A DNA stretch of 64,000 nucleotides from an uncultured Clostridia bacterium (GTDB taxonomy: Bacteria; Bacillota; Clostridia; TANB77; CAG-508): NCBI GenBank assembly GCA_934169775.1, contig CAKPOI010000002.1:12956-76955 (forward strand), written 5' to 3'. Shown here piece by piece: positions 51,321-52,658 of this stretch (within the stretch, counting starts at the first letter, position 1; each line of letters begins with the position of its first letter). The notes beneath the pieces were generated by a model. The model saw nothing but the letters and a program-made list of their open reading frames with translations. It was not told the DNA's origin and did no database searches. The position numbers and the translations under genes are program-made.

Positions 51321-52658
51321 TCAGTTTACATAAAGTGCAGGACGGAATCCAATAAGGTAGTTGGCAGAGGCCGTGCTGCAGTCATAGCGGCTAGAGGCTG
51401 GATCGCCAGAACCGGAATAGTAGTAATTGCCTCCCCTGCTGGCACAAGGACTGCTGCTGTTGGAAGTTTTTTCTAATGTCCATTCCCATTCATTTCCTGC
51501 AAAATCATAAATGTTCATCTTTTTTGTATAATCTGTTATTCCTGTGCTTAATAGTGTATCATAATCTGGACTTGTATTTGGTTTTGTATATGAATCTGTA
51601 ATTGTTGTCCATGTTCCTAATGTTCCATTTTTATATATAGCATATTTTCCTGATGTTATATTTTCTATTTTTGCATTTTCATAGTTTCCCCAACTTGTGC
51701 TATTTGAATTTATATCTGTTGCTGCTAATCCACCTTTTACTTCTAAAAACTTACATACTAAGTCCCATTGGATTCCAAACATTAAACTACTTGTATAATT
51801 ACTATTTGGTGTCATTTCTTTAGCTAGAGCTTGTGCCTCACTGCAATATATCCAGTTGTATGGTATTGCATCTTTTTGGCTTATGGCTTTTGGAGATGTT
51901 CCTATTGTTATTCTTGCTGATGAATCTGTTCTTGCATTTGTTGTTTCTGTTGTTGTTCCTTCTATTCCTGCTTCATATCTTCCTATCCAGAATCCTCCAT
52001 AAGTATATATACTTTTTAACATTTTTTGATATGCTGCTTTATATTCATCTGATGTTATTCCACATCCTTCGTACCATTCATCTGTCCAATTTCTTCCTTG
52101 TCCTAATTTTCCTTCTCTGTATGTTGTTGCATATGCTATTAATTTATTCTTTATATCTGTATAATTTTGGTCTGTTAATGTGTTTGTTGTATCTATTGTT
52201 AATCCTGTAAATACTGTTGTTTTTGGTACTTCTATCCAAACCCATTCATTATTGTTTTTATCTTTTATTACTATTCCTTTACTTGCATCTGCTTCTATTA
52301 CTGTAGAATTTGCAGGTACTGCTCCTGCTGGGTTTGAATCTGATTTATTTATATTAGTAAAATTTGAACTTGTTCCTCCTCCAGATCCACCATTTCCAGA
52401 GCCTCCACCTGTTGTTCCATCTGCATATTGTTCTATTGTGCTTTCATATCCTGCTAATTTCTCTGTTTCTTCATCATTTTTTTGATTTGTTTGTTCTTTT
52501 GCTTCTGCTGCTCTTTTTAATATTCCGTTATCTCCACTTAATGCTGCAATTGTTACTCCTGCTAATATTAGAAGTACAATGATTGTAATTACTAATGCTA
52601 TTAGAGTTATACCTTTATTGCTTTTTGTATTCATTTTTATTCTGTCTTTTATCTTCAT
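51321..52658 (-). CDS. DGR variable protein: prepilin-like N-terminus + Gly-rich linker + FGE-sulfatase/C-type-lectin-fold domain carrying VR
   Basis: MKIKDRIKMNTKSNKG-ITLIALVITIIVLLILAGVTIAALSGDNGILKR. FGE-like motifs GFWIGRYEAG, IYDFAGNEWEWT, SRGGNYYY and IGFRPAL. Confidence 0.9.
   Translation of the reverse strand: MKIKDRIKMNTKSNKGITLIALVITIIVLLILAGVTIAALSGDNGILKRAAEAKEQTNQKNDEETEKLAGYESTIEQYADGTTGGGSGNGGSGGGTSSNFTNINKSDSNPAGAVPANSTVIEADASKGIVIKDKNNNEWVWIEVPKTTVFTGLTIDTTNTLTDQNYTDIKNKLIAYATTYREGKLGQGRNWTDEWYEGCGITSDEYKAAYQKMLKSIYTYGGFWIGRYEAGIEGTTTETTNARTDSSARITIGTSPKAISQKDAIPYNWIYCSEAQALAKEMTPNSNYTSSLMFGIQWDLVCKFLEVKGGLAATDINSNSTSWGNYENAKIENITSGKYAIYKNGTLGTWTTITDSYTKPNTSPDYDTLLSTGITDYTKKMNIYDFAGNEWEWTLEKTSNSSSPCASRGGNYYYSGSGDPASSRYDCSTASANYLIGFRPALYVN
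51335..51470 (-). repeat. DGR variable repeat (VR) at the 3' end of the target gene
   Basis: 22 mismatches to the TR over 136 nt. 20 of them fall at TR coding-strand adenines. VR ends 11 nt before the stop codon. Confidence 0.9.

Follow-up and report, generated by a model that had tools for sequence, protein, structure and literature searches.

A diversity-generating retroelement target with a type IV pilin-like stem in an uncultured gut Clostridia bacterium

Locus and retroelement cassette

The stretch of DNA analysed here (the window, 64,000 nt; contig CAKPOI010000002.1, positions 12,956 to 76,955, of assembly GCA_934169775.1) carries a diversity-generating retroelement (DGR), and the target gene of this element encodes a 445-aa protein with a type IV pilin-like stem followed by a predicted ligand-binding head. 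The window was chromosomal, with the housekeeping genes infC, rpmI, serS, engB, pnp, rnj and gltX, and its GC content was 27.6%; the uncultured gut Clostridia bacterium from which it comes is low in GC and has roughly 1.5 Mb of genome. In minus-strand order, the target gene was followed by a long hairpin, a MutS-like (MSL) gene, the accessory gene Avd, the reverse transcriptase (RT) gene, the template repeat (TR) with a structured RT-14 RNA, and an open reading frame (ORF) resembling an OB-fold protein. The target gene is thus the cis target of a chromosomal, intact-looking DGR (Table 1).

The TR and the variable region (VR) of the target were aligned over 140 nt with 24 mismatches, of which 21 fell at TR adenines, all in codon position 1 or 2, while the three at other bases were all third-position differences. 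The TR contained 18 AAY codons in the reading frame of the target. Because just three non-adenine differences, third-position and of synonymous type, were present, the last homing event appeared to be recent. The VR covered 47 codons (397-443), which agreed with the last ~45 codons of the domain proposed in a first-pass annotation of this DNA, made by a model from the sequence alone; the 445-aa target and the 147-aa pilin that this annotation had quoted were likewise recovered from their ORFs. With an RT beside the TR, an adenine-biased TR/VR pair, a VR at the 3' end of the target within a fold of the C-type lectin (CLec) kind, and the accessory gene Avd, the locus is a DGR.

DGRs with an MSL accessory gene have been described by Wu et al. 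as architecture D (PMC5758913), and the present cassette with Avd and MSL fitted this architecture. Avd homologues of the same size were found in about 25 related loci. The in-frame TGA of the MSL gene stood where the homologues of loci L016 and L022 have Cys, and the gene of the window ended before the 167-aa L022 version would; the intact L022 homologue matched Pfam MutS_I (4.6e-5). The RT-14 RNA shared 5 nt with the 3' end of the TR and probably corresponds to the structured spacer of the DGR RNA. The 80-aa OB-fold-like ORF was kept just downstream of the TR and RT-14 RNA in at least 24 related DGR loci (including L016, L022, L033 and L050-L078), and it may be an undescribed extra accessory gene of this DGR lineage. 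Long hairpins of unrelated sequence were present at the same relative position in L016, L022, L052, L053 and L075; the hairpin of the window is probably the terminator of the target gene, and possibly a DGR-associated structure on the target side. Rfam microRNA matches at this hairpin (51150-51225) were rejected, since they scored below the gathering thresholds and reflected the long perfect stem only.

Table 1. Features of the target gene, the retroelement and the type IV pilus cluster (positions in the window)
Feature	Coordinates	Strand	Characteristics
DGR target gene, 445 aa	51321..52658	-	leader ending in KG, pilin-type α1 stem, Gly-rich linker, FGE/CLec-like head
Leader peptide, residues 1-16, MKIKDRIKMNTKSNKG	52611..52658	-	basic, ends in KG; GGAGG 7 nt upstream of ATG
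Pilin-like α1 stem, residues 17-80	52419..52610	-	hydrophobic 25-mer ITLIALVITIIVLLILAGVTIAALS, then amphipathic helix
Gly-rich linker, residues 81-98, GTTGGGSGNGGSGGGTSS	52365..52418	-	pLDDT <50 in full-length model
Predicted FGE-sulfatase/C-type-lectin-like ligand-binding domain, ~residues 110-445	51324..52331	-	family profile and AF2 model
VR, codons 397-443 of 445	51331..51470	-	140 nt; aligned with TR
Long hairpin	51142..51233	-	45-nt arms 89% complementary, then T-run; ~90-180 nt downstream of target stop
MutS-like (MSL) accessory gene, interrupted	50727..51050	-	in-frame TGA at 50910-50912; shorter than intact homologues
Avd accessory gene, 83 aa	50462..50713	-	Pfam bAvd 1e-10
DGR reverse transcriptase, 336 aa	49480..50490	-	RVT_1 1.6e-19; motifs IGNYTSQ and YLDD
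TR	49287..49426	-	140 nt; starts 54 nt downstream of RT stop
Structured RNA immediately 3' of TR	49112..49291	-	Rfam RT-14, RF02921; 81.6 bits against gathering score 48.1; E 8e-11
OB-fold-like ORF downstream of TR, 80 aa	48847..49089	-	weak Pfam OB-fold match, 5e-4
Three further pilus-cluster genes, 153, 273 and 541 aa	38476..41395	-	position of PilM/N/O-type components; no Pfam match
Type IV pilin, 147 aa	37885..38328	-	donor-like relative of target stem; N_methyl 21.4 bits against cut-off 21.2
PilD-like protein	36991..37800	-	A24 N-terminal domain 1.5e-30; peptidase half unrecognisable, without GxGD
Two minor-pilin-like genes	36044..36505, 36507..36950	-	KG|ITTSS... and KG|ITGID..., the latter with Asp at +5; weak ComGE/ComGF matches
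PilB	34293..35936	-	T2SSE family
PilT	33162..34262	-	T2SSE family
PilC	31756..33093	-	T2SSF 1e-29

Stem and head of the target, and the pilus cluster

Residues 15-78 of the target were aligned by BLASTP with residues 6-69 of the pilin encoded in the type IV pilus cluster of the window (42/64 identical, E 3e-22), and nothing beyond them aligned. Judged by this alignment, the N-terminal 64 residues (15-78) of the target are homologous to the leader and α1 helix of the local type IV pilin. Two helices (15-41 and 46-79) were predicted in a full-length AlphaFold2 (AF2) model, which was of low confidence (pLDDT 46). The target was not a lipoprotein and had no Sec-cleaved signal; its N-terminus had the form of a class III signal peptide, with a short basic leader (MKIKDRIKMNTKSNKG), Gly at -1 and then a hydrophobic stretch (ITLIALVITIIVLLILAGVTIAALS). 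This signature was also found in the family of homologous proteins described below. In 84 motif-bearing representatives at 50% identity, Lys at -2 was present in 47 and Gly at -1 in 68 (81%), followed by Ile at +1 (71), Thr at +2 (76) and Leu at +3 (71), and the leader had a median length of 11 aa and a net charge of +3. In 78 close homologues, the entropy of residues 16-50 was 0.08 bits, compared with 0.52 bits for the rest of the protein. Such near-invariance of the stem exceeds the needs of a plain membrane anchor and argues for a specific interaction. N_methyl was detected at E<0.01 in 20 of 101 family representatives, and the stem matched the geopilin sequence KGFTLIELL weakly, position by position. 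The exact stem string GITLIALV was not found in the searched literature.

At the DNA level, positions 38208-38267 and 52511-52570 differed at 2 of 60 nt, exactly as the first-pass annotation had stated. This near-identical tract was the second half of the stem shared by pilin and target, in which 3 of 20 codons differed, compared with 9 of the 15 preceding codons (Fisher p = 0.01). An 85%-identical paralogue from another genome (P0002) had six synonymous differences from the target in the stem block, five of them in the second half. This pattern has the look of gene conversion over a short tract, with the pilin and target genes as partners.

For the head, a Pfam search with the target alone gave no FGE-sulfatase match above threshold and no Pfam family at all, so that the assignment of the fold rests on family-level evidence. 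FGE-sulfatase (PF03781) was matched by 50 of the 101 family representatives (<=50% identity), with a best value of 6e-11, and a family profile searched against the PDB matched human SUMF2 (1y4j; E 0.003) across the NIYDxAGNxxEWT, RGG and GFR motifs that frame the VR. The full-length AF2 run with 78 close homologues was poor and was replaced by a run on residues 100-445 with a diverse alignment, which gave a pLDDT of 81.7 and a pTM of 0.89. The best Foldseek matches of this model in the PDB were CarF, Mtd (1yu3), OvoA/EgtB and PorK, all of the FGE/CLec type; in a library of viral structures (BFVD), a phage SUMF-like protein and tail-collar fibres were the best (E 3e-3, probability ~0.9). The head is accepted as an FGE/CLec fold mainly on the profile evidence. 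The FGE-sulfatase/CLec head proposed in the first-pass annotation was therefore borne out mainly by the family profile; the AF2 model was good, the target itself stayed below threshold and the fold matches were weak.

The type IV pilus cluster encoded PilB and PilT with T2SSE matches of 2e-102 and 2e-43, together with PilC, and it was syntenic in four other assemblies; its three genes without a Pfam match were syntenic in L046-L049. A 1.47 Mb contig with the pilus cluster (ena:ERZ28756056:contig_9157) also carried at least nine paralogues of the target. The cluster pilin belonged to a 21-member cluster at 90% identity, distributed on many contigs, and showed weak geopilin and PilE1 matches. 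As had been noted in the first pass, both minor-pilin-like ORFs shared the same junction, a basic leader ending in KG and then IT. All pilin-like proteins of the cluster were without Phe1 and Glu5. Elsewhere in the window, a 1,993-aa protein with seven Cna_B repeats, DUF11 and a VWA domain was encoded at 882-6863 on the minus strand and was typical of sortase-type surface adhesins. Together with the target, it brings the surface-adhesin systems in this 64-kb stretch to at least two.

A large family with variable and frozen copies

More than 7,900 clusters at 90% identity matched the target; at 50% identity, 3,262 clusters matched at E<=1e-3 and 390 at E<=1e-30. The named loci of this family came from metagenome-assembled genomes (MAGs) of uncultured Clostridia from human and rabbit gut, and no functional name was attached to any matching protein in any source. 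The KG|ITL stem was present in at least 60 of 150 representatives, many of the remainder being fragments, and a second flavour of stem, KGS[IV]T..., was present in 11. In a scan of the retrieved loci, the stem was also found on other passengers, namely a Big_2 protein and two others in which no domain was recognised. When homologues were sought with the 60-aa N-terminus, only short fragments (53-105 aa) came back, and these did not reveal passenger domains. Four members (P0121-P0124) were giants of 3,400-6,500 aa, each with up to 5-14 matched stretches and some with 10-14. Among the three largest, even the related N-terminus of the KGS type (KGSITLFVLIA-type) was seen in P0122 (6,477 aa) only.

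The search beyond this genome for the stem joined to VR-bearing heads, which had been suggested together with the first-pass annotation, showed that the combination recurs. In loci found via the RT, the stem was present on five of six complete targets; the sixth, which starts with MLTGQNGIL, has lost it. Two further RT-linked targets were longer than 1,377 aa and were cut by contig ends. About 25 gut loci, taken from metagenomes and MAGs, showed the same cassette order, their RTs being 59-81% identical, and adenine-biased TR/VR pairs about 2 kb apart were detected in 13 of 29 metagenome loci. An RT adjoined a paralogue in 3 of 45 genome loci. The target is thus one of thousands of pilin-stem CLec proteins, most of them without an adjacent DGR and with static VRs, a family that the earlier annotation had missed. 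When L019 was compared with the TR of L033, the adenine fraction was 0.86, and remote targeting by a TR is suggested in other genomes.

The variability of the family was concentrated where a DGR would act. Across the 78 homologues, the mean entropy at codon position 1 and 2 sites of TR adenines was 2.34 bits, with AAY codons at 2.3-3.3 bits, compared with 0.67 bits at non-adenine VR sites (p = 8e-6). The hypervariable AAY sites indicate that DGR action shaped the family. A different pattern was found within clusters at 90% identity. In three of them (P0076, P0297 and P0012; loci L086-L088), which were not beside an RT, the variable columns in the last 50 were 0/28, 2/83 and 0/64, so that the VR-equivalent regions did not vary between samples and were better conserved than the remainder of each protein. 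A VR-swapped member was found in one 90% cluster only (P0059/P0493; L084, L085), which adjoined an MSL-Avd-RT cassette; the swapped member had 26 changes in the last 50 columns with the scaffold residues intact, and the cassette of L084/L085 was partly deleted, with RT and TR shortened or split. These results suggested that the paralogues away from an RT were made by earlier DGR activity and are now kept frozen by purifying selection.

Two related loci showed rearranged elements. In L084 (1-8300), three tandem paralogues (432, 489 and 432 aa) were arranged with integrase-fragment (rve_3) ORFs between them; the last one abutted a DGR cassette with a split RT, and the locus lay beside secE-nusG-rplK, another chromosomal site than that of the window. 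In L016 (5263-6246, from a MAG), a deletion has removed Avd together with the N-terminal half of the RT, which left the MSL gene joined in frame to the remaining C-terminal RT half. With 24 of 25 TR/VR mismatches at adenine, L016 is a recently inactivated DGR.

Proposed presentation of the head and comparison with known systems

The best supported reading is that a CLec head, carried on a type IV pilin stem, has its binding face rewritten by the DGR. By this mechanism, the TR RNA would be reverse-transcribed with adenine-specific errors and the cDNA would replace the last 47 codons of the target; the 18 AAY codons would allow roughly 15^18 possible heads, as the VR codons are predicted to form the ligand-binding face of the FGE-sulfatase/C-type-lectin-like domain. 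Since the target begins with the leader and α1 of the cell's own pilin (KG|ITLIALV..., Ala at +5), followed by the Gly-rich linker and the head, it may be inserted into the membrane like a prepilin and its α1-N recognised by the type IV pilus machinery. The head would then be presented at the filament tip, or the flexible linker would tether it along the filament; alternatively, it would be held on a membrane-anchored stalk. Only the copy adjacent to the cassette would be diversified, the other paralogues being outcomes of earlier diversification that have become fixed. We propose with moderate confidence that the target is, through its stem, a client of the pilus machinery, with the head at the tip or tethered. 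The functional steps of such display, namely leader cleavage and dependence on the pilus machinery, as well as the location of the head, its ligand and current DGR activity, are what we infer from the sequence.

A number of observations weighed against this reading. The N_methyl profile, with which the N-terminus had been meant to be checked, gave the target 14.7 bits, below the cut-off of 21.2. The mature residue +5 was Ala, not Glu, in both target and cluster pilin; in the 84 motif-bearing representatives it was Ala in 57 and Glu in none. Glu5 is nearly universal in polymerising bacterial pilins. One L025 paralogue has Glu at +5 (GITLVE) where near-identical paralogues have Ala, which supports homology with the canonical GFTLxE motif. 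No globular pilin domain followed α1, and the similarity to the pilin ended at residue 78. The pilus cluster lay about 13 kb from the target gene, which is outside the pilus operon, and the giant members of the family could not sit in a filament shaft. The Foldseek matches of the head in the PDB had weak scores (E 0.1-1.6, TM ~0.3). As to present activity, the VR was identical in three assemblies of the window strain, and the premature stop of MSL was common to an independent assembly (L089) and is hence not a sequencing error. In sum, the pilin stem with a variable head proposed by the first-pass annotation held for the stem, whose homology is clear from the alignment, and for the head with the VR at its C-terminal end, and did not hold for any further part of a pilin, given the missing Glu5 and the N_methyl score; its term 'modular type IV pilin' had to be given up, since no complete pilin module is present and a Gly-rich linker follows where the similarity stops.

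Processing of the leader was a further point against display by the pilus. Pfam did not find Peptidase_A24 in the PilD-like protein of the cluster, nor in its C-terminal half alone, while the same search detected this domain in the positive controls E. coli PppA (2e-24) and GspO (3.5e-30). In an alignment with PppA and GspO (3 sequences, 14-22% identity), the first Asp motif was plausible (GID126-x5-IN versus VID-x5-LPD), and GxGD was aligned to FGLIL, which has no Asp. A phmmer search of the PDB with the PilD-like protein gave no relevant solved relative. The prepilin peptidase that had been placed in the cluster was thus recognisable by its A24 N-terminal (Zn-finger) domain, but had no recognisable Peptidase_A24 domain and, in this alignment, which at such low identity is no proof, no GxGD motif, and the claim that the target is processed by PilD became doubtful. 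A second peptidase could be encoded elsewhere in the genome, and the enzyme and the substrates of the pilus cluster may have co-diverged.

With regard to activity, the DGR may be quiescent or decaying, with past diversification, a VR which is now a fixed allele, and a family diversity that is the fossil record of DGR action and gene duplication. We consider this a serious possibility, short of probable; it concerns activity, not architecture, and fits display on a filament as well as on a membrane stalk. It would account for the MSL gene, shortened and split by TGA where homologues have Cys with the same stop in an independent assembly, for the same VR in three assemblies, for the decay of related cassettes (the half-deleted RT of L016, the shortened or split RT and TR of L084/L085), and for the cassette-less paralogues with invariant VRs described above. 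However, the RT (336 aa), Avd, TR and RT-14 RNA were intact in the window strain, and the three non-adenine TR/VR differences point to a recent last homing. The three assemblies are nearly clonal (2 SNPs in 6.3 kb) and have little power, consensus assemblies hide VR variants within a population, and MSL is absent from most DGRs and may be dispensable (PMC5758913). By its MSL stop and constant VR, the element of this strain looks quiescent, but it may still be active.

With regard to architecture, the target may instead be a membrane-anchored receptor, whose N-terminus is only a class III or uncleaved anchor and whose α1-C and linker form a stalk that keeps the head clear of membrane and wall, with no filament involved. 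This is the chief competitor of display by the pilus and was regarded as possible but less likely. It is favoured by the target having neither a globular pilin domain nor Glu5, by the missing GxGD of the PilD-like protein, by the position of the target gene outside the pilus operon, and by the fusion of the stem to unrelated passengers such as Big_2, with a KGS-type N-terminus on the 6,477-aa multi-head P0122; class III signal peptides on non-pilin binding proteins, those for sugars in Sulfolobus, give a precedent (PMC3047682). On the other hand, the hydrophobic stem hardly varied among paralogues and species and nearly equalled that of the cluster pilin, which argues that it contacts the machinery or the core of the filament specifically, beyond simple anchoring, and Gly at -1 was conserved. 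Moreover, the precedent itself, the bindosome, depends on a type IV pilus-like assembly, so that the receptor differs from a client of the pilus machinery in degree and not in kind.

A phage receptor-binding protein or prophage cargo with a coincidental likeness to pilin is very improbable. The best viral structure matches of the head were tail-collar fibres and the phage SUMF-like protein, and many gut DGRs are phage-borne (PMC8144416), but no tblastn match was found in 50,697 phage records (INPHARED) and only three distant ones (26-31% identity) in 2.9 million IMG/VR contigs; the flanks contain housekeeping genes (infC, rpmI, serS, engB) and no phage genes, and the stem is common to a chromosomal pilin. 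On these searches, flanks and stem, phage origin was rejected. An assembly chimera of the pilin gene with an unrelated ORF, which the first-pass annotation had named as a danger to its reading, has a negligible chance of being the explanation, in spite of 44 identical bases in a row within the 60-nt block in a metagenome assembly: the whole target recurred on independent contigs and in independent samples (444/445 identical on one such contig), its C-terminal 164 codons and the DGR cassette in a third assembly (with the two SNPs in 6.3 kb mentioned above), and the same architecture in thousands of homologues, while nine synonymous differences within the first 15 codons of the shared block show that the pilin and target genes are distinct, so that a chimera was excluded.

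A broader reading is more speculative and rather doubtful. In these gut Clostridia with small genomes, the type IV pilus may be a general scaffold for a large set of interchangeable stem-only pilins, having α1 but neither a globular domain nor Glu5 and each bearing a CLec head of its own, in which the DGR generates heads that are duplicated and fixed as paralogues, and a non-canonical, co-diverged PilD-like enzyme processes them; the genome would then hold a germline-like library of frozen DGR products and one live hypervariable copy. Should the pathway of the type IV pilus present the head, the target would link DGR hypermutation to type IV filaments for the first time, would be a monoderm counterpart of the DGR-diversified type V pilus adhesins of Bacteroides, and would suggest repeated convergence of gut commensals on programmable pilus adhesins. 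The family is large and unannotated and has a sharply defined stem without Glu5, which makes it a test case for the minimum that a subunit needs for entry into a filament, and also for the display of bulky modules on pili. The differences between its paralogues lie mostly at AAY-coded sites, yet each paralogue stays the same from host to host, which hints that DGRs can seed stable diversification of gene families and not only transient variation.

In the searched literature, no paper coupled a DGR to a type IV pilin or prepilin, which agreed with the first-pass annotation, and pili were unmentioned in large DGR surveys (PMC8144416, PMC5758913). A 'GspG-type pilin', listed without comment among rare VR-bearing domains in PMC11661182 (Table S11), may or may not be the present family. 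The closest described system is that of the DGR-diversified type V pilus tip adhesins of Bacteroides (Macadangdang et al., bioRxiv 10.1101/2024.11.15.621889). Like the target, these adhesins combine a gut-commensal DGR, a C-terminal VR of the CLec type and a pilus-subunit module, and the multi-copy pilin genes with variable or tightly controlled activity resemble the target family. They differ in being made as lipoprotein precursors and polymerised by strand exchange in a diderm, whereas the target has a type IV leader and α1 without a full pilin fold in a monoderm; the Bacteroides system has experimental evidence, and the target is known from sequence alone.

Modular pilins, such as PilB (vWA) and PilC (lectin) of Streptococcus sanguinis, are also monoderm proteins with an N-terminus of the class III type and α1, followed by a ligand-binding module, which is proposed to sit at the pilus tip (PMC8179133, PMC9934059). 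Those published retain the whole of a small pilin module (α1 and β-sheet), the IPR012902 motif and Glu5, in contrast to the stem only, Ala at +5 and flexible Gly-rich linker of the target; no described modular pilin undergoes hypermutation by a DGR, and the architectures listed in the text read do not include an FGE/CLec module. By its sequence, the target resembles a modular pilin in its working, without falling under the definition of Raynaud et al. 2021 (PMC8179133).

Among known DGR targets, the similarity of Mtd to the head of the target was weak (TM ~0.26), with no sequence homology outside the fold, and Mtd is a phage tail-fibre tip trimer. Mtd of Bordetella phage BPP-1 is the prototype of DGR variable proteins, with a CLec fold and AAY-coded variable positions. 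TvpA of Treponema denticola and LdtA of Legionella are chromosomal DGR targets with a surface-exposed CLec domain of the FGE type; they are lipoproteins with lipobox signals, exported by Sec or Tat, and in Treponema several related target genes are present per genome. The target is like TvpA and LdtA in its chromosomal DGR and surface CLec domain of the FGE type, whereas its targeting and anchoring module is pilin-like. Of these systems, tvpA is mentioned in PMC5758913, where the Legionella DGR is described as having an MSL accessory gene. The bindosome proteins of Sulfolobus, like the target, are ligand-binding non-pilins whose class III signal peptide lacks Glu5, and they rely on a pilus-like assembly system for display at the surface (PMC3047682). 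They are binding proteins of archaeal ABC transporters without a DGR, so that the likeness is one of mechanism only and not of homology. The target therefore joins two kinds already described, the DGR that acts on a CLec protein and the pilin to which a functional module is attached, and does not form a new category.

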